A stretch of 64,000 nucleotides of DNA, from contig OZ252100.1 of assembly GCA_965248435.1 (NCBI GenBank), positions 4,800,001-4,864,000 on the forward strand, given 5' to 3'. The notes beneath the pieces were generated by a model that was given only the letters and a program-made list of their open reading frames with translations, was not told where the DNA came from and did not search any database. The position numbers and the translations under genes were made by a program. Positions 4,445-45,628 of this stretch are shown one piece after another (within the stretch, counting starts at the first letter, position 1; each line of letters begins with the position of its first letter). Source of the stretch: Candidatus Latescibacterota bacterium (GTDB taxonomy: Bacteria > Latescibacterota > UBA2968 > GCA-2709665).

Positions 4445-5416
4445 ATGGCAAACAAGGTGCTCGTAACGGATTATGCCTGGCCTGATCTGGAAGTGGAGAA
4501 GGGCGTTCTCAAGGAGATCGGCGTGGAACTGGTCGAGGCCCCGGATGGGGAAGAGGAGACGCTGACCGGCCTGGCGAAGGGGGTCTGTGGCATCCTGACG
4601 TGCTGGGCGCAAACGACGGCTCGTGTGATCGAGGCGGCGCTGCCAGACCTGAAGGTGGTTTCACGCTACGGTGTCGGTGTGGACAATATCGATGTGGCCT
4701 TTGCGACGGAGAAGGGCATTCCCGTGGCGTATGTGCCGGACTACTGCATGGTCGATGTGGCGGAGCACGCCGTGTCTCTACTGCTGACGCTCGCTCGAAA
4801 AGTTGCGCTCTACGACAGATTGATCAGAAAGGGGACGTGGGATCTCCAGGCCGGGCCGCCCCTGCGTCGCTTGAGCGAGCAGACCCTGGGCCTGGTCGGG
4901 TTCGGGCGGAACGCGAGGCAGGTTGCGATTCGGGCGAAGGGATTCGGCCTTCGAGTGATTTCGTTCGACCCGATTCTTACGCCGGAGATGGCGGAAGAGG
5001 CCGAGATAGATTCCGTGAGTCTTGACGACCTGCTTGCGACTTCCGATTACATTTCGATCCACTGCCCCTCCATCGATGCGACAAGGGGAATGATCAACGC
5101 CGAGACGCTGGGCAAAATGAAGCCGACGGCCTATCTCATCAATACTTCCCGGGGTGATATCGTGAACGAGGCCGAGCTGGCCGATGCCCTGGAGGCGGGC
5201 GAGATCGCCGGGGCCGCGCTTGACGTGAGGAGTCAGGAACCGCCGGAAGCAGGGGACAGATTGATCCAGATGGAGCAGGTGATCCATACACCGCACGCAT
5301 CATTCTGCTCGGTTGAATCGCTACACGAACTGCGTGAGCGCACGGCGTGGGAGGCGCGCCGGGTGCTTTCCGGGGAGGAGCCCGAGAACCTGGTGAATCC
5401 TGACTACAGAAAGTGA
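4445..5416 (+). CDS. D-isomer 2-hydroxyacid dehydrogenase (PGDH/CtBP-like)
   Basis: RYGVGVDNID, GLVGFG, INTSRG, LDV, TPH motifs; GGAGG RBS. Confidence 0.9.
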   Translation: MANKVLVTDYAWPDLEVEKGVLKEIGVELVEAPDGEEETLTGLAKGVCGILTCWAQTTARVIEAALPDLKVVSRYGVGVDNIDVAFATEKGIPVAYVPDYCMVDVAEHAVSLLLTLARKVALYDRLIRKGTWDLQAGPPLRRLSEQTLGLVGFGRNARQVAIRAKGFGLRVISFDPILTPEMAEEAEIDSVSLDDLLATSDYISIHCPSIDATRGMINAETLGKMKPTAYLINTSRGDIVNEAELADALEAGEIAGAALDVRSQEPPEAGDRLIQMEQVIHTPHASFCSVESLHELRERTAWEARRVLSGEEPENLVNPDYRK

Positions 5417-13992: not shown

Positions 13993-14069
13993 TAGGAGGG
14001 CAAAGTGTTGAGGTTATACCAAATAAATTACCGCCCTTCGAATGCGATCGAAAAGCGGTGTCGCCCTTT

Positions 14070-14150
14070 TCGACTCCCTGCGCCGGCATGATCCGGATCA
14101 GGTTCAAAGGGTATGTTCTCAGCTCAAGAGATGAGCACCCCCGTTTGCTG
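14070..14150 (-). ncRNA. TPP riboswitch upstream of thiO operon
   Basis: GGGGTGC..CTGAGA..ATACCC TTTGAACCTGATCCGGATCATGCCGGCGCAGGGA; terminator-like hairpin at about 14025-14060. Confidence 0.95.
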
Positions 14151-14204
14151 CCATAAAGATAACGGTTCTACAGGGGGGTAGTCAAGTTTTGCATAGATCT
14201 GTCT

Positions 14205-19454: not shown

Positions 19455-19483
19455 GCCATTATGTGCATTACAGAACAATTTCG

Positions 19484-19563
<80 letters not shown>

Positions 19564-19637
19564 AACTTCATATCTGACAAAGAGCGGTGTTACAAGGAAA
19601 AACTAAACAGAATCGCTCACTTCGTCAAGGGCCGGGA

Positions 19638-38854: not shown

Positions 38855-38910
38855 TCACGGATTCTCAATCGCGGGCTCGAGGCCGGCCCTAGACGCGGAT
38901 CTCGCTCACC

Positions 38911-39078
38911 CATGTGACCGAATGCCCGGTTTACGAGGGCAAGATGAAGATCATCGCCGCACTCACCGAGCCCCTGGCCATTCGGACCTACCTCGACGGG
39001 GTCGGTCTGGCCTCGTGTCCGCCACCCATCGCACCTCCACGCCCTCTCCCTCAGACTGAATTCGAATACGCGGGCTAA
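38911..39078 (+). pseudogene. C-terminal remnant of an IS91/ISCR-like transposase
   Basis: ECPVYEGKMKIIAALTEPLAIRTYLDGVGLASCPPPIAPPR resembles the CPxCGGxMRIIA..IL..LGL..PP..PAR tail. Confidence 0.7.
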
Positions 39079-39172
39079 ACCCCCGCCTCTACCTTCGACG
39101 CCTTGCGCGTGACCGGGGAGAAGTAATATGGAGTTTGATCAGGACTCAGCCCGTACCGGGTGTGCGATGAAC

Positions 39173-39304
39173 GGCTAACGTCCCCGCGGGCTGCGAACTG
39201 CCAAGCAACCGCCGTGACAGAGGCAAGGTTGCCGGAGGCCGGAGGGAGCCCTTCGGCAGGCTCAGGGTAAACTCCGCGACTGGAGCGCAAAGCCCGTGTT
39301 TTAG
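39173..39304 (-). other. attC-like site 3 (carries a REP-like insert)
   Basis: Minus strand CTAAAAC-a-CGGGCTttGCG...CGCAGCCCG-cggggac-GTTAGCC, starting at the methyltransferase stop codon. Confidence 0.65.
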
Positions 39305-40068
39305 CTTTGTGAGTTCTTCAGATATGTGACGGGACCTCCGAAGAGAAATATCCCTTTCGGAGTCTTGAAAAAAGGTTCCAGGTCGGAAAGCAGTAAAGCT
39401 CTAACATCATCGATCCTCTCGTTGCCCTGTTCCACAGCTGCAATACAGTTAGTCTGGGTCAATATATAATCCACGAGCGCATCTCGCGAGAAGTTGACTT
39501 CGTTCGTGTAGTGTTCTTTACCCAGAAAATCGAAACCTTCGCGGTTTGCATCTTCTTCTTCAAAAGGTTGACGATTCCGTGGAGGGGTCGGGTACCGCTT
39601 CAGATGCACTTCGTACACCCATTCTTCAAAGTCGGGGTTCTCTGCCATTTTCCCACTGAAACTGTTATTGTAGATCACGAGATACCCGTGGCTTTTCAAG
39701 AGCCTACGTGCCTCTGAAAGAAACCTGGAACGGTCAAGCCAATGGAAAGCAAGCGCAACAGTGATCATATCGAACGAACTATCAGGTAGCGGTATTTCCT
39801 CGGCAGGAGCAACGTAATAGGTAATGCGATCATCCTTTGTGGCAAGGTCTATCATCTCCGAGGATGAATCTATTCCTACGATATTTTTGACGATTTCCTT
39901 GAGAGCCACACAAGATCGTCCTGTCCCGCATGCCACGTCCAGGGCTACTTCCAAAGGATCTGTTAGATTCAGGTAACTCTTGATCATCCCGATAACCAGA
40001 GGATGAAAATATGGCCGAGCCGCCGCATATCTTTTGGCGGCAGTCATATGATCGAAATGACCTGCCAT
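39301..40068 (-). CDS. Class I SAM-dependent methyltransferase (cassette-like)
   Basis: ALDVACGTG, FDMITVALAFHW; more AT-rich than core genes. Confidence 0.88.
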   Translation of the reverse strand: MAGHFDHMTAAKRYAAARPYFHPLVIGMIKSYLNLTDPLEVALDVACGTGRSCVALKEIVKNIVGIDSSSEMIDLATKDDRITYYVAPAEEIPLPDSSFDMITVALAFHWLDRSRFLSEARRLLKSHGYLVIYNNSFSGKMAENPDFEEWVYEVHLKRYPTPPRNRQPFEEEDANREGFDFLGKEHYTNEVNFSRDALVDYILTQTNCIAAVEQGNERIDDVRALLLSDLEPFFKTPKGIFLFGGPVTYLKNSQS

Positions 40069-40086
40069 TGGTTATTCTCTTTCCCC

Positions 40087-40121
40087 TTCCGCAGCCGGTC
40101 GTGCTATGCGGCTGTGTTGTG
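40087..40121 (-). other. Degenerate/truncated attC-like site
   Basis: ACACAAC (complements the GTTGTG start of this cassette) then a CAGCCG..CGGCTG hairpin; no downstream GTT. Confidence 0.4.
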
Positions 40122-40161
40122 TTTTTGCTATCCACGGAACAATTGAGGCGGCCAATTCGTC

Positions 40162-40452
40162 TCAATTGAGAAGTGAGCTAACGTCAGCGATAGCTTCCGG
40201 CAATTTTCGAATCTGACTTTCCAGATCCCATCTGCGTATCAGGGAACCCTTGACTCTTCCAGGTTTTTCCACGTAGAAAGACAGCTTGTCAGCATAATAG
40301 ACTGCCCAGACTAGCCCGAATGTTTCCCTCTCAGCCTGGGAAAGTTGTCGCTCAGAAAGATACCCCTCGAAGAAAGTCTTCATCTCTTCTTTGTGAAGTG
40401 GTCTTCCGTTCCCCTTCGTATCCGTCGTACGTATACGAAGTGATGTCATCAC
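40162..40452 (-). pseudogene. Probable gene fragment (resembles a phosphotransferase C-terminus)
   Basis: FFEGYLSERQLSQAERE motif; no convincing start. Confidence 0.35.
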
Positions 40453-40531
40453 GAGACTTTCCTGTGGCCGTCGGTCCTTAAGGCGAACAATGGGCAGAAA
40501 TCCTATATCATCAGCATTGAGCCTTGAACGA

Positions 40532-40969
40532 TCAATCCTTGATGATTCCCTTATGAATCATTGGATTCCCGTCACTCCAAAGGACGCGCTGAACAATGGA
40601 CGCGATGCGCCAAGAGCCAGATATCTTCTTCACACCAAGAATATACAGGCAGTGGGTATTCAGCACTTCACCAGATGAGTCTCTTCGGTGTATAGCCATA
40701 GAGATTCGGGCGGTCCCAACTTCGCCATCAAGCTGTATTTCGTAGTTGCCTGCAAGATGATGAGTCTTTAGCTCCTGCAGTGCCTCACACCGGAGTTTAA
40801 CAAACTGCTCCGCAGTTAGGACTTCGGGGGGGGTTCCACGAAGATCCGAGTAGTCAGTATATATGGACTCGGATAGACAGGACTTCAGGTCATCCCAAGC
40901 CTTGATATCAAAGCAATTTGCGAATCGACTGATTAATCGATACACATGACTCTCATCTGATGAACTCAC
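40532..40969 (-). CDS. NTF2/SnoaL-like protein (cassette-like)
   Basis: D.KAWDDL, THHL, WRI motifs; follows attC-like site 2. Confidence 0.8.
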   Translation of the reverse strand: MSSSDESHVYRLISRFANCFDIKAWDDLKSCLSESIYTDYSDLRGTPPEVLTAEQFVKLRCEALQELKTHHLAGNYEIQLDGEVGTARISMAIHRRDSSGEVLNTHCLYILGVKKISGSWRIASIVQRVLWSDGNPMIHKGIIKD

Positions 40970-41029
40970 TCAAAGAACTCCTATCGAGACTGCGCCGCTT
41001 CTGTTTTGGGGGGGTTAGGCTGGCATTGC

Positions 41030-41115
41030 GCACAACGTTCTCGCCGTGCGCGAACTTGCCGCAGGCAAGTTAGGCGAAGGCCGGATGGGCTGAGCCGCGC
41101 ACGGTCGTGTTATAC
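41030..41115 (-). other. attC-like site 2
   Basis: Minus strand GTATAAC-acga-CCGTGCGCG...CGCGCACGG-cgagaac-GTTGTGC. Confidence 0.75.
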
Positions 41116-41149
41116 GCTTGCTGGTTCTGGTATCAATGCGGTGTCTGTA

Positions 41150-41857
41150 TCATTTTTCTTCAAGTATTTCAGCCTGAATTGTTTCCTCTTGAGCAGATCG
41201 CTTACCACGCGTGACTCTGTAAGCCTTCGCATTGAGTCGGGATGAGACGACTTTCTTGACCCTCTCTCCTTCGAAGTGAGCGGCTGCGCCGTCATCAAGT
41301 GCAATGCCTGGCAAAATCTTACCTTTCCAGACGAGTTGCTGATAGTAAGGGCGACGGTCGACCTCACTGTCGTAATGTGGGCAACTGCTCCCAGGAAGAA
41401 ATCCGAGACAGTCTAAAGGCAAAAGGGGTCCTTTAACAGAGTCCGTCACTCCCTGTTCGAACCAGCAAATCGCGCCCGCACTGATCCCCGCAAGGATGAC
41501 TCCACACTCCCAAGCTTCCCGAAGCATCTCATCCAATCCCCAGTCCCGCCAGACGGCAAGCATACTTCGAGTGTTCCCGCCTCCAACGTAGATAACGTCC
41601 TTTGCCAGCAGATAGGACTTCAGATCTGCCTCAGTCCTTCTGAAGAAGGTGAGATGTGAAGGCTGACAATCGAGTTGCGCGAAGGCAGTGTAGAATCTGG
41701 CAACATAGGTGTCAGCGTCCCCACTGGCGGTTGGGATGAAGCACACAGAGGGCTTCGTGGTGGAAACCTGGTTTAGAATGTACAAATCCAAAGCAGGTGT
41801 CTCCTCCATGGAAAAGCCCCCTCCGCCCAGTGCAATTATATGTTTCTGCTTACTCAT
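41150..41857 (-). CDS. pepE: Peptidase E (S51) family (cassette)
   Basis: FIPTASGD, YVGGGNT, GISAGA, CPHY. Confidence 0.9.
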   Translation of the reverse strand: MSKQKHIIALGGGGFSMEETPALDLYILNQVSTTKPSVCFIPTASGDADTYVARFYTAFAQLDCQPSHLTFFRRTEADLKSYLLAKDVIYVGGGNTRSMLAVWRDWGLDEMLREAWECGVILAGISAGAICWFEQGVTDSVKGPLLPLDCLGFLPGSSCPHYDSEVDRRPYYQQLVWKGKILPGIALDDGAAAHFEGERVKKVVSSRLNAKAYRVTRGKRSAQEETIQAEILEEK

Positions 41858-41926
41858 CGTTGTTTACTGACCCTCCAATAGGCCACCGACTATTTCATAG
41901 GAACGATTACCCCAGAACCAGCTTGC

Positions 41927-42001
41927 GTATAACGATTAAGCGTGTATCCGGAGTCGGAGAAGCGTGGACGGGAGCGGGATTCCGGATACACGGTGTTGAA
42001 C
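41927..42001 (-). other. attC-like site 1, overlapping the element's left end
   Basis: Minus strand GTTCAAC-ac-CGTGTATCCGGA...TCCGGATACACG-cttaatc-GTTATAC. Confidence 0.75.
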
Positions 42002-42206
42002 GAAGCCGCTTCACCTGCCTATGGGGATTGGATGAGTGATTCTTGTGTAAGGACCGCTGGGCTGGCCCAGTCATCGGACCGTATTTGAAGCTGTTTGGAG
42101 GGGCCGATGTCGCAGGATCCCATAGTCGCTCTACCAAGCTCAAAGAGTGGACAGACTACTGCCGTGTTGGGTGGTTGGGCTTGCGGGCAAGGGATGGTGT
42201 AGGAGC

Positions 42207-43391
42207 TCAAGCTACGGCAACATGTGCCGGAGGCGCTCGCAGAGGCGCGAGGGTTCCGACTGTGAGCATAGGGCCTCCGCACTGCGCACAGACCTGAAGA
42301 TCGATGCCTGTTACCCGGAACAGAAGGTCCTGCCAGGTCGCCTTTGTGGCTGCGGAAGCCGTCGTGCATACAGTGCCCAGGAGCCTACGGCATCGTGCGA
42401 GCTTTTTCCGGCGACCCCGATTGCTGAGCAGTCCGTAGTGCCGGATCTTCACGAAGCCATCCGGCAGGATGTGAAGCAGGAACCGCCGGATGAACTCGTA
42501 GGCATCGACGGTCATCAGCTTCCGTCGGTTGCCGGCCTGGCGGTCCCGGTAGTGGAATGAGACCCGGTCGCCCTCACAGGCGACCAGCCGGTGGTTGGAG
42601 ATGGCGATCCGGTGCGTGTATCGTCCCAGATAGGCCACGATGCGTTCTGGACCCGCAAAAGTCGGCTTGACGTAAACGGTCCATTCCCTCTGGTAAAGAC
42701 CCCGAAGCAGATCGAAGAACGCATCTTCCAGTGGAGCACTCAATCCCGGGAACGCCAGAAGGCCTTCCTGGTGCGCGTCCTTCAGGAACGCAAGGAACTT
42801 CCCCCGGAACAGTCGGGACAGAACTTTTACGGGTAGAAAGAAGCCCCGTCGCGCCGCCTTCCATTCCTGACCGTCGTGGGTCAGCCCACCTCCAGTTACG
42901 ATACAGTGCAGATGCGGGTGGTCGATGAGTGTCTGAGACCACGTATGAAGCACGGCGGTAAAGCCGATCTGCGCTCCAAGATACTTCCGTTCCCGCGCCA
43001 GCTCCAGAAGACTCTGCGATGCGGCTTTAAACACCAGGTTGTAGATCAGCTTCTGGTTCCGCAGAGCAAGCGGCCGCAGGGGCTCGGGCAACGTGAAGAC
43101 GACGTGGAAGTATGGGATCGGAAGGAGATCCTCTTTACGAGCGTCGATCCATCGTTCGGTCGTCAGGAACTGGCACTTCGTACAGTGCCGGTTGCGGCAG
43201 GAGTTGTAGGCGATCCGCTTCGTTCCGCACTGCCCGCACACTTCCACGTGTCCGCCCAGCGCAGCTGTTCGGCAGATCTGGATGGCTCGCATGGCCCGCT
43301 TCTGCCGAAGCGGCATGTGATCACCGTAGTGTGCTTGATACCCATCTCCGTGGACTCGGAAGATGTCGGCGACTTCGAGAGGCTGTGACAT
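42207..43391 (-). CDS. IS91-family (Y2/HUH) transposase
   Basis: Zn-binding CGQCG..YNSCRNRHCTKC; HPHLH (HUH); YLGRY (YxxxY); FIRRFLLHILP..KIRHYG. Confidence 0.93.
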   Translation of the reverse strand: MSQPLEVADIFRVHGDGYQAHYGDHMPLRQKRAMRAIQICRTAALGGHVEVCGQCGTKRIAYNSCRNRHCTKCQFLTTERWIDARKEDLLPIPYFHVVFTLPEPLRPLALRNQKLIYNLVFKAASQSLLELARERKYLGAQIGFTAVLHTWSQTLIDHPHLHCIVTGGGLTHDGQEWKAARRGFFLPVKVLSRLFRGKFLAFLKDAHQEGLLAFPGLSAPLEDAFFDLLRGLYQREWTVYVKPTFAGPERIVAYLGRYTHRIAISNHRLVACEGDRVSFHYRDRQAGNRRKLMTVDAYEFIRRFLLHILPDGFVKIRHYGLLSNRGRRKKLARCRRLLGTVCTTASAATKATWQDLLFRVTGIDLQVCAQCGGPMLTVGTLAPLRAPPAHVAVA

Positions 43392-43403
43392 GGCCAACCT
43401 CCG

Positions 43404-44255
43404 CTACAAGGTCGGCTTGTCTTCATCTCCCAAAAGGTCCAGGGGGCTTCTGATACGCGTGAGATCGCGAGTGGTGACGTGGAGGTAGACGGTGGTGGTT
43501 CGCAGGCTCGTGTGACCCAACAGTTGTTGGACGAAACGGACGTCCACTCCGTTGTCCAGAAGATGTGTGGCGAAGCTGTGACGCAGAGAATGGACACTCG
43601 CACGCTTTTGTATCTCGGCGCGTCGGCAGGCCTGCTCGAAGACTTTCTGGACACTGCGGGCGTGGAGCGGTGCATCCGGTCTTTCGCCAGGGAACAGCCA
43701 ATCGCGAGGCTGGTAGCTGCGCCAGTAGACGCGGAGTGCCTTTAACGCCTCCTGGGCCAGAAGCGTCTCTCGCTCTTTTTGGCCTTTGCCCCGCACACGG
43801 ATCAGCATCCGGTCACTGTCGATATCGGAAAGCTTTAGCCCGATGGCCTCACTCAGTCTGAGCCCGCCAGAGTAAATGACCATCAGCAGCGTACGGTGTT
43901 TCAGGTTGTTGGTCCTGTCGATCAGCCGCTGCACTTCCTCTGTGGAGAGTACCACCGGGAGCTTCTTTGCCTTCTTCGCACGAGGGATGCCCCACTCGAC
44001 CCAGTCACGCTTCAACGTCGTTTGGAACAGAAACTTCAGTCCGCTGTATACCTGGTTGACATAGCTTTGGGACAGCTTCCGCTCAGTGATCAGATAGTGC
44101 AGATAGGCGCGGATCTCTTCTTCGCTGAGCCGGTCGGGCGGTGTCTTGCAGTAACGACACAGCCCGGCCACTCCGCTCACGTACGCCTTCTGCGTATCCG
44201 GATCTAAACCTTTCAACTGCATGTCCCGGATCATTCGCTTCCGATGCTTGGTCAT
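43404..44255 (-). CDS. Tyrosine recombinase with N-terminal SAM-like domain (not IntI)
   Basis: GLRLSE, KGQKER, HSLRHSFATH, LGH, TTTVY; lacks the IntI-specific insertion before WLFP. Confidence 0.93.
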   Translation of the reverse strand: MTKHRKRMIRDMQLKGLDPDTQKAYVSGVAGLCRYCKTPPDRLSEEEIRAYLHYLITERKLSQSYVNQVYSGLKFLFQTTLKRDWVEWGIPRAKKAKKLPVVLSTEEVQRLIDRTNNLKHRTLLMVIYSGGLRLSEAIGLKLSDIDSDRMLIRVRGKGQKERETLLAQEALKALRVYWRSYQPRDWLFPGERPDAPLHARSVQKVFEQACRRAEIQKRASVHSLRHSFATHLLDNGVDVRFVQQLLGHTSLRTTTVYLHVTTRDLTRIRSPLDLLGDEDKPTL

Positions 44256-44560
44256 GGCTCTCTCCTTCTGCTGATGGTGGACGTTGTTAGCAGAAGGAGG
44301 ATGCGAAGCACAGAGCCATTTGCAAAGTGGCTCCGGACTTGCACGGTATCATATCCTGGTTGTCAAAGAGCAAAGGCCTTGCAGCAGGCCACCGCGAAGC
44401 GGTTTAGTTCAACTTCTGCATTCGCGCACCATGTGCGCAGATTCCACCTGTAGGGCAGATAGAATGCCCTGCCTGAATCCTGCTAATAATATAGAGAATG
44501 CGTATTGGTTCGTGAACCCAATTCATAATGCGTATGTGTTCTTCCAGATCCAAGAAGCAT

Positions 44561-44595
44561 AAAAAAAGAGGGCGCAACGTTTTCGTTGCGCCCTC
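44561..44595 (-). terminator. Intrinsic terminator of the ECF/Spy operon
   Basis: GAGGGCGCAACG-aaaa-CGTTGCGCCCTC followed by T7. Confidence 0.85.
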
Positions 44596-44624: not shown

Positions 44625-45605
44625 TTACTCGGTCGCGGCCCCTCCGTCGAAGCGTCTCTTGAAGTTCGCCTTCAACTCCTCAAGCAGGGCCTTCTGTTCC
44701 TCCGTGAGAAGGCCGCTGATCATTTCCTGGAACTCGTTGCGCAGCGCCTGGACCTGCTCACGCACGGTTCCACGCTCGGCTCCGGCGGCGCGCGCCTCTT
44801 CGATGAGCGCCTTCACCGCAGCCTGCCGATTTTCTTTCAACGCAGTCATCTGCTCCTGCTGATCGGCCGTGAGCCCGAGCTTTTCGGAGATGTCGCCCGC
44901 ACCCCGGGCCCGCTTACCTCTTTTTCCACGTGCGCGGTCATGACGGGCTGATTTCATTTCTTCGAACAGGGCCTTCTGCTCGTCATTCAAGATGCCCAGG
45001 ATCTCTTCGTGAAGCTGATCACCAAGGGCCTGCTTCTGCTCCCTGAAGCTCTCCCGATCGGAGCCTGCTGCCTTCGCCTCTTCGATCAGCGCCTTTATGG
45101 CAGCACCGTGCTCTTCTCGAATGGCCGTGATTGCCTCCTGCTGCTCGCCCGTGAGCCCAAGCCTTTCAGCGAAGTCGCCCGAGCCGCCGGCCCGTTTCCC
45201 TCGCCTCCCGTGTGGGCGGGACTGGCGAGCGGCTTTCAGCTCTTCGAACAGCGCCTTCTGCTCGTCGTTCAGGACAGAAGCGATCCGTTCGTGGAACTGT
45301 TCGCTTAGCGCCCGCTTCTGCTCCCGGAACGTCGCCCGATCGGAACCCGAAGCCTTCGCCTCTTCGATCAGGGCCTTGATGGCGGCCCTCTGCTCCTCCC
45401 GTATGGCGGTGATCGCTTCCTCCTGGTCCTGGGTCAAGCCCAGCTTCTCGGCCAGGCTGCCGCCCGCGGATGTGAAGGCTGCATCCGATTCGCCCGCCAG
45501 CTTTTGAGCCTGTGTGGCCAGGCTGGACGTTGCCGTCTCATTACCGCACCCATATACCCCGATGCCGATCATCAGCAGGGATAGGAAAATCGCTTTGGCT
45601 TTCAT
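44625..45605 (-). CDS. Lipoprotein with three tandem Spy/CpxP-like (LTxxQ) repeats
   Basis: Lipobox-like VYGC; three KLGLTxxQ...L(N/T)xEQKAL repeats. Confidence 0.8.
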   Translation of the reverse strand: MKAKAIFLSLLMIGIGVYGCGNETATSSLATQAQKLAGESDAAFTSAGGSLAEKLGLTQDQEEAITAIREEQRAAIKALIEEAKASGSDRATFREQKRALSEQFHERIASVLNDEQKALFEELKAARQSRPHGRRGKRAGGSGDFAERLGLTGEQQEAITAIREEHGAAIKALIEEAKAAGSDRESFREQKQALGDQLHEEILGILNDEQKALFEEMKSARHDRARGKRGKRARGAGDISEKLGLTADQQEQMTALKENRQAAVKALIEEARAAGAERGTVREQVQALRNEFQEMISGLLTEEQKALLEELKANFKRRFDGGAATE

Positions 45606-45628
45606 GTCGTTCCTCCTTCGCAAAAAGT

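Follow-up and report, generated by a model that had tools for sequence, protein, structure and literature searches.

A recombinase-bearing IS91-family element with a predicted attC-like terminal hairpin of its own and two putative cut positions on one strand

Background

IS91 and its classical relatives IS801, IS1294 and ISCR are insertion sequences (IS) with a Y2 HUH transposase, a terIS palindrome next to one of a common set of tetranucleotides, and a CCTAT-like ori strand. As described in PMC13181058, the tetranucleotide that flanks the palindrome of terIS has T as its second base, and IS91 gives rise to single-stranded circles in which oriIS is joined to terIS. The pairing of a recombinase gene with an IS91 transposase gene is known from 15 phyla (PMC9208149, available part), and Smyshlyaev et al. 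(10.1101/542381, available part) place IS91-linked recombinases in an integron-like subgroup in which the integron-specific insertion is missing. Here we analyse one such element in a stretch of 64,000 nucleotides (the window) from Candidatus Latescibacterota bacterium (assembly GCA_965248435.1, contig OZ252100.1, positions 4,800,001 to 4,864,000, forward strand), together with its relatives. An initial annotation of the window had described it as a mobile element formatted as a cassette, the ends of which serve both as HUH nick sites and as recombinase core sites.

In integrons, on the other hand, the integrase (IntI) recombines the attC sites of cassettes only as folded bottom strands, as stated in the available part of PMC11023631. 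ISShvi3 next to attC in a Shewanella integron is said to yield "a new gene cassette structure" (PMC9229058, available part), and ISWz1 repeats form circles beside resistance genes (PMC11322121, available part). In the literature searched, part of which was accessible in extract, we found no account of an element-encoded hairpin, a strand bias or two cut positions in such elements; ISfinder, TnPedia, book chapters and closed journals were outside the search. ISWz1 and ISShvi3 probably belong to the recombinase-bearing IS91 group as well. This subgroup is very common, and the task of its recombinase is not known to have been settled. The gene family itself has already been named; the new points are how the ends are built, where the element really stops downstream, and the two putative cut positions. 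Judging from sequence comparisons, we consider it probable that the element is an autonomous "self-cassette", that is, a member of the recombinase-bearing IS91 subgroup which moves by a two-enzyme single-strand cycle.

Sequences and methods

The analysis covered 83 loci: the window, four plasmid loci and 78 matches listed when genomes were scanned once with an alignment of transposases. The 78 loci, a lower bound for the family, span many phyla; the genome of the window is not among them. A parser of element ends handled 77 of the 83 loci, 60 of which passed a filter blind to the core positions p1-p4 (numbered outward from the tetranucleotide); 58 were left after near-copies had been removed, and 56 entered the tree. 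The parser was ungapped, so that rare bulges would escape it, and it rewarded top-strand G-T oppositions. The left motif was found in 69 of the 83 loci, the right motif in 66 and both in 56, many of the misses being contig ends; the two motifs are thus no product of chance. The recombinase gene lies directly upstream of the transposase gene on the same strand in the window and in 81 of 83 loci, and the length of 48 elements ranges from 2422 to 2692 bases (median 2571).

Results

An attC-like hairpin at the downstream end

As the initial annotation had claimed, the minus strand has GTTGAAC with its first base at 44413 and a GTTCAAC motif with its last base at 41995. The two fit GTTRRRY and RYYYAAC; the 18-mers that contain them are identical at 16 of 18 positions, and the window holds no copy of the shared motif besides these two. 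Position 41995 is nevertheless not the end of the element, which runs 62-64 bases further, into the GTT at 41931-41933, as shown by conservation, by pairs of filled and empty sites and by tandem copies. The stretch that the annotation had called site 1 (62 bases, 41995 to 41933) is conserved among relatives, and the conservation stops directly after GTT; site 1 therefore belongs to the element. Conservation on the left side ends at TT|GAAC; the right side stays conserved over a stem-loop and a strand of nine bases, up to and including GTT. The hairpin in the window folds with z = -3.5 and an unbroken stem. Across the family it scores above threshold in 51 of 56 real ends versus 30 of 1120 shuffled tails, and 563 of 638 arm cells are Watson-Crick pairs, compared with a mean of 302 for arms taken from different loci. 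The alignments thus indicate that the downstream end is an element-encoded R''-stem-loop-stem-R' hairpin, with the boundary at its far end. The proposal of a cassette format stands in this form, since the layout is family-wide and the element carries an attC-like site of its own. The annotation had said that boundaries of other copies away from GTTCAAC would speak against it, and this is where the downstream ones, but only these, are found.

The pairs of filled and empty sites come from relatives. In Sinorhizobium, comparison of an AATC-type copy (L084) with three empty copies (L089-L091) reveals an insert of 2495 bases in the left end of an IS630 element, which ends at the far side of the hairpin and shares a 4-base core with the target. 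A CG-type Rhizobium copy (L103, compared with L104) has the same boundary with the core CGGA, and the pair L099/L101 places the boundary of a distant, recombinase-less relative at the far end of its hairpin as well. The last pair is compatible with IntI recombination at G|TT, which concerns that distant relative; in all three pairs bases are shared, so that the cut positions are not separable. No empty sites were found for L082 and L102. Two tandem copies (L028 and L052) display the circle junction. From these pairs and tandem joints, the boundary in the window is placed within GTT 41931-41933. Insertion of the element into a pre-existing host attC site is rejected on the basis of the same pairs and of conservation, since the hairpin is encoded by the element.

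The two repeats had been proposed to be recombining ends. They appear instead to be two strands of one recombinase arm, paired in a folded circular single strand. Inversion between the ends, proposed as well, found no counterpart: no inverted copy was seen, and although some hairpin occurs in 5 of 50 left flanks, the element's own occurs in none of the 46 tested.

Co-variation of the core bases

AAC is the core of one subfamily only. Other members have AATC, NNCG, NNGG, NNCC or NNTG, and AA is missing in 29 of 58 elements. In these 29, p3 of R'' agrees with the right junction in every case (11.7 expected) and p4 in 28 (16.6 expected). Furthermore, R'' agrees with the left flank at p3 in 23 of 24 and at p4 in 22 of 24 cases, whereas p1 and p2 are near chance. 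On the transposase tree of 56 elements, p3 has changed at least 13 times, and the co-variation has therefore arisen repeatedly. A check of one to two bases of homology beside G|TT is to be expected of a tyrosine recombinase that exchanges a single strand. The single miss at left p3 is L055, the left end of which resembles that of L008. In L008 a group II intron matched by Rfam (4630-5018) abuts the terIS-like end inside the tetranucleotide, which suggests that the bottom strand is exposed there; the flank of L055 is similar, with no Rfam match.

Two cut positions

In 18 elements with short hairpins, both junctions show variation at p1 and p2 (1.0-1.5 bits), with mostly fixed columns on either side. 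Two elements with 99.4% identity (L106 and L107) differ in both dinucleotides, two others with 98.9% identity (L035 and L036) differ in the left one, and the left dinucleotide differs in all four copies with identical hairpins. Nearest neighbours share dinucleotides about as often as shuffled ones (9/32 vs 8.1 and 6/32 vs 5.1 for the two sides), which amounts to no inheritance on either side. As one crossover position would leave one side inherited, these data imply two putative cut positions on the same strand, two bases apart, G|TT and TT|GAAC. In addition, a plasmid sequence that matches the left flank of L106 at 100% stops exactly at the HUH position (one of 51 records), which speaks for this position as the site of insertion and G|TT as that of excision. 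Our first model, with the crossover always at G|TT, was dropped after the dinucleotide data and this match. In the window both positions fall inside the shared GTT, so that the window alone cannot tell them apart.

The element leaves no target-site duplication. The shared core of 4-5 bases looks like a repeat, but the dinucleotide is the same on both sides in no more than 6 of 18 elements, and a four-base duplication was rejected for this reason.

HUH signals and the folding strand

At the left end, the bottom strand bears a CCGC-N3/4-GCGG mini-hairpin in 45 of 48 elements and an IS91-type tetranucleotide in 46 of 48. T stands at position 2 in all 48 upstream copies, compared with 51 of 58 inner copies on the other strand; since the motif search favours T at both copies, this contrast is conservative. 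GTTC does occur at both ends, as the initial annotation had it, but the two words lie on opposite strands and hence cannot both be rolling-circle nick sites; only the upstream one is nick-like. A tetranucleotide of the GTTC/CTTG type stands at the right junction in 2 of 55 cases, one of which is a tandem joint, and the window has GTAT; the element is therefore not a classical IS91 in its use of targets. The nine-base terminal strand resembles the CCTAT of the ori ends of IS91, of IS1294-like and of Photobacterium elements, one base out of register. These three have no exact inner copy of terIS, whereas the cassette-borne relative L099 has one of nine bases. With the tetranucleotide at the upstream end and the oriIS-like strand at the other, a complete origin exists only in a circle or a tandem. 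A CATAG motif lies at most 45 bases from R'' in 50 of 58 elements (5-36 bases upstream) and in 0 of 58 in a control window.

Read on the top strand, the paired arms contain 70 A-C oppositions (stem 44, R box 26), which correspond to G-T wobbles on the bottom strand, versus three G-T (stem 1, R box 2), or 18 versus three distinct types, and this bias arose although the parser favoured top-strand G-T. The bottom-strand fold is the more stable one in 47 of 48 elements. The folding strand thus appears to be the bottom strand, the same one that bears the IS91 nick tetranucleotide.

The two enzymes

The transposase matches NF033538 with 449.7 bits (cutoff 125) as well as PF04986 and PF14319, has invariant motifs and is 27% identical to IS91 TnpA. 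The recombinase has IntI4 as its nearest solved relative, both by sequence and by fold; its kinship with IntI rests on these matches and on the available part of 10.1101/542381. It scores 191 bits against TIGR02249, under the cutoff of 265, and is about 42 residues shorter than IntI4 across the integron-specific insertion, with 26 versus 68 residues between the aligned blocks. The catalytic residues are kept in both enzymes. The absence of bulged bases in the hairpin fits the missing insertion, because an HUH partner that fixes the strand would leave no bulges to read.

Targets and settings of relatives

Right flanks in the AATC clade (L083-L088, L011, L027, L029, L043, L066, L068 and L078) contain a GATTC-N17-GATTC motif, which, where annotated, is the left end of IS630 elements (ISRm2011-2); this clade therefore rides on another IS. 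Three Clostridium copies (L092-L094) lie in palindromes with arms of 12 bases and spacers of 6-7 bases, the crossover being at the edge of an arm. Three further members (L081, L079 and L095) adjoin RIT-like recombinase trios, L081 lying inside such a palindromic site (9/10). Palindromic targets as a general rule had weak support across the set. Family members also insert at the hairpin junction of other members (left flank of L056; L028 and L052), which gives tandem arrays like cassette arrays.

The recombinase-less IS91-family transposase of L099 (2855-4316) forms a clean 1462-base cassette between aadA2 and the class 1 integron 3' segment, with GTTGAAC at its start, an inner GTTCAAC and the same terminal strand as the family. 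It occurs in 11 plasmid records, is absent from at least 19 listed sister integrons, and is probably ISKpn22 of In722 (PMC12772345, available part).

Discussion

Comparison with known systems

Elements such as ISAzo26 (annotated in L096), which have an upstream tyrosine recombinase (y4qK-like integrase), share genes, order and size with the present one, and there is no difference in kind. With classical IS91, IS801, IS1294 and ISCR it has the features named at the outset in common; unlike them it uses no target tetranucleotide, and it has an inner inverted copy of terIS, a long terminal hairpin, a recombinase gene and a p3/p4-matched target. Like attC cassettes it has an R''-L''-loop-L'-R' hairpin that folds on the bottom strand, and the start of the unit completes an R box in the circle; the GTTCAAC and GTTGAAC boxes of the window pair in the circular form, which is not family-wide. 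Unlike these cassettes it has its own enzymes, no bulged bases, an R arm of 16 bases and a core not fixed to AAC; its spacer strands measure 4 and 9 bases, those of the L099 aadA2 site about 7 and 8. Extrahelical L-box bases and canonical spacers, by which attC is defined, are absent, and so is the extra helical insertion of IntI from its recombinase. It is thus a member of the recombinase-bearing IS91 subgroup and not a classical IS91 in target use, an integron or a canonical attC cassette.

Strand-biased circularizing integrative elements likewise have strand-biased single-stranded circles and tyrosine recombinases but, as stated in PMC9345347, no attC-like inverted repeats at their att sites. 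CTX phage and other Xer-exploiting elements (in part PMC9345347) share an HUH-made single strand, a folded site, a tyrosine recombinase and replication-dependent resolution. They differ from the present element, which has its own recombinase, no virion genes and many types of target (IS630 ends, RIT ends, intergenic DNA) instead of dif. Strand-biased circularizing integrative elements are not known to encode an IS91-type HUH transposase.

A two-enzyme cycle and its alternatives

In the cycle that we favour, the element would move as a single-stranded circle, and the two enzymes would cut the bottom strand two bases apart. The recombinase would cut the folded strand at G|TT and check homology over one to two bases (p3/p4), as IntI does on attC, and the HUH enzyme would act at the tetranucleotide, at TT|GAAC. 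The two bases between these positions are replaced at both junctions. As to the order of steps, we lean slightly towards excision by the recombinase, which would thereby build the origin, followed by insertion by the HUH enzyme. The reverse, in which the HUH enzyme copies the element out and the recombinase inserts it, is a plausible second choice, and other mixtures have a slim chance.

Several points weigh against this cycle. The recombinase lacks the insertion that IntI needs, and its activity on single strands is assumed. The evidence from filled and empty sites comes from relatives and not from the element in the window, and four rows of the alignment were re-registered by hand. The likeness to oriIS extends over only 4-5 bases, shifted by one, and either order needs one HUH cut with no tetranucleotide. 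The order of the steps draws on one record, which was read up to the end of the match only. The right dinucleotide is GA in three of three members of one group, which plain inheritance fits better. Palindromes at the targets are weak on the whole (207 vs 192, p 0.02; at least 7/10 in 4 of 44, p 0.09), and a skew in base composition could account for part of the strand bias.

Some of these observations suit another scheme, in which the HUH enzyme acts alone in classical IS91 rolling-circle fashion, the hairpin is an enlarged oriIS with R'' as a guide or splint for target choice (a parallel is IS200/IS605), and the recombinase only resolves dimers or cointegrates. The one informative insertion end point lies at the HUH position, the left dinucleotide differs in four of four copies with identical hairpins where the right is GA in three of three, and a recombinase-less relative has the same layout. 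However, the right dinucleotide differs at both bases in the 99.4% identical pair and shows no inheritance, the target tetranucleotide is missing in 53 of 55 cases, and the geometry, two double-stranded arms separated by a short spacer, with homology beside G|TT, is that of a recombinase. In addition, the three classical IS91-type elements have no exact inner copy of terIS, and the recombinase-less relative sits where IntI1 is available. We regard the HUH enzyme acting alone as unlikely.

Alternatively, the recombinase, like IntI, could excise as well as integrate the element at G|TT, with the HUH enzyme only replicating the circle, as in a CTX-like phage with its own integrase. The homology at p3/p4 beside G|TT would agree with this, as would an origin complete only in the circle and the Clostridium copies and L081 in palindromic sites with 6-7 base spacers, where an arm begins at TT. 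This scheme predicted an inherited left dinucleotide, but it is not inherited, and a putative empty allele keeps the left dinucleotide; we hold it to be quite improbable.

A passive cassette, in which an IS was captured together with an ordinary attC site and is moved by a host IntI, would be in keeping with the adjoining cassette array, with the clean class 1 integron cassette of the distant recombinase-less relative and with ISShvi3 in Shewanella (PMC9229058, available part). Most relatives, however, lie outside arrays (at IS630 ends, RIT ends or in intergenic DNA), GTTRRRY fits no more than 2 of 18 right flanks of the AAC type, half of the family lacks AAC, and there is no IntI in the window, all of which make it very unlikely, although a host IntI may move AAC-type members occasionally. 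A crude attC scan of 19 loci, which looked at whether relatives of the AAC type generally stand at the head of cassette arrays, gave scattered matches and also missed the branched site in the window, and hence carries no weight on this point. Finally, an insertion sequence bounded by terminal inverted repeats might have entered a pre-existing attC, its ends acting as nick sites and recombining with each other. The 16/18 repeat and both GTTC words would favour this reading, but it is barely credible given the element-encoded hairpin, the GTTC words on opposite strands, the absence of inverted copies and the filled and empty sites.

Returning to the two-enzyme cycle, it is conceivable, if tentative, that it represents a distinct pathway, in which an HUH enzyme and an IntI-like recombinase alternate on one folded strand, and also a living precursor of integrons, attC being descended from such ends and the insertion of IntI being gained to read bulges once the HUH partner was lost; targets would then be re-programmable through p3/p4, and some sites called attC would be the ends of these IS. 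A layout held across a large family points to an undescribed way of moving with a possible link to integron origin. From the end anatomy the recombinase gains a substrate, a strand and a position of cutting, all open to direct test with oligonucleotides, and the closest relatives of IntI beside attC-like folded sites with no bulges make the origin of integrons testable. The corrected boundaries also offer a reading for reports of an IS next to attC, and as relatives lie beside resistance genes (ISWz1, L099), the mechanism bears on the rearrangement of such regions.

The locus in the window

The features of the locus are listed in Table 1. The element stands first in a decaying array of host cassettes that has no IntI, and the window does not distinguish entry into the array from its seeding; no IntI and no second recombinase was found in the 64 kb. 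The right junction lies past the terminator of the Spy operon, as initially annotated, and the flank 44414-44470 likewise proved to hold a short hairpin only and no full site. This upstream flank is not a hairpin of the family type, and both its attI-likeness (arm symmetry 5/10) and its promoter content (one promoter-like match vs 0.8 expected) are at chance level. Rfam gave no match at the element, and the end repeat is not among the longest pairs listed by a repeat finder. Protein cluster counts show that the source genome holds further copies of the element.

Table 1. Coordinates of the element, its parts and its neighbours in the window
Feature	Position	Strand	Remarks
Whole element	41931..44413	minus	constant part 44410-41933, ~2.48 kb; junctions inside GTT common to both ends (44411-44413, 41931-41933)
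Tyrosine recombinase, 283 aa	43404..44255	minus	R133, K157, H222, R225, H248, Y257 invariant
IS91-family Y2 HUH transposase, 394 aa	42207..43391	minus	zinc-binding domain, HUH motif, YxxxY intact
terIS-like upstream end	44392..44413	plus (bottom)	mini-hairpin CCGC-GAA-GCGG 44392-44402, tetranucleotide GTTC 44407-44410, then AAC
R''-like inner inverted copy of upstream end	41995..42012	minus	predicted to pair with upstream end in folded circle; not element boundary
Inner stem, L-box-like arm, variable loop	41942..41991	minus	arms 41981-41991 and 41942-41952; no bulged base
Nine-base terminal strand	41933..41941	minus	consensus N-C-C-T-W-N-A-p4-p3; resembles CCTAT of classical oriIS; last constant bases of element
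CATAG motif upstream of R''	42019..42023	minus	conserved in relatives
Neighbouring host-type cassette	41029..41933	minus	peptidase S51 gene 41150-41857; flank, outside element
Rest of decaying array	39173..41029	minus	SnoaL gene, 96-aa open reading frame, truncated site near 40085-40130, methyltransferase, attC-like site 39173-39306
Intrinsic terminator of upstream LTXXQ/Spy-like operon	44568..44595	minus	element insertion 155 bases beyond

The sequence targeted by the element here is the S51 cassette start, GTTATAC at 41933; this cassette has its own R'', GTATAAC, at 41109-41115 and an attC-like site that extends to 41030. Its inverted ends (41109-41130 and 41912-41933) match at 20 of 22 positions, far past the 7-base core. 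The attC-like sites of the array downstream of the element comprise one intact, one truncated and one degenerate site. Branched loops and a long 3' spacer set those at 41029-41118 and 39173-39306 apart from the hairpin consensus of the element and from the aadA2 site. A peptide of 61 codons (38893-39075, plus strand) faces the end of the array, where GTTC follows the last R' box (39164-39179); by eye we take it to resemble the C-terminus of an ISCR/IS91-type transposase, with no support from Pfam or tblastn. Elsewhere in the window, the LTXXQ/Spy-like protein (44625-45623, minus strand) consists of three 282-base repeats, and two thiamine pyrophosphate (TPP) riboswitches lie at 14058-14152 and 19475-19565 on the minus strand.

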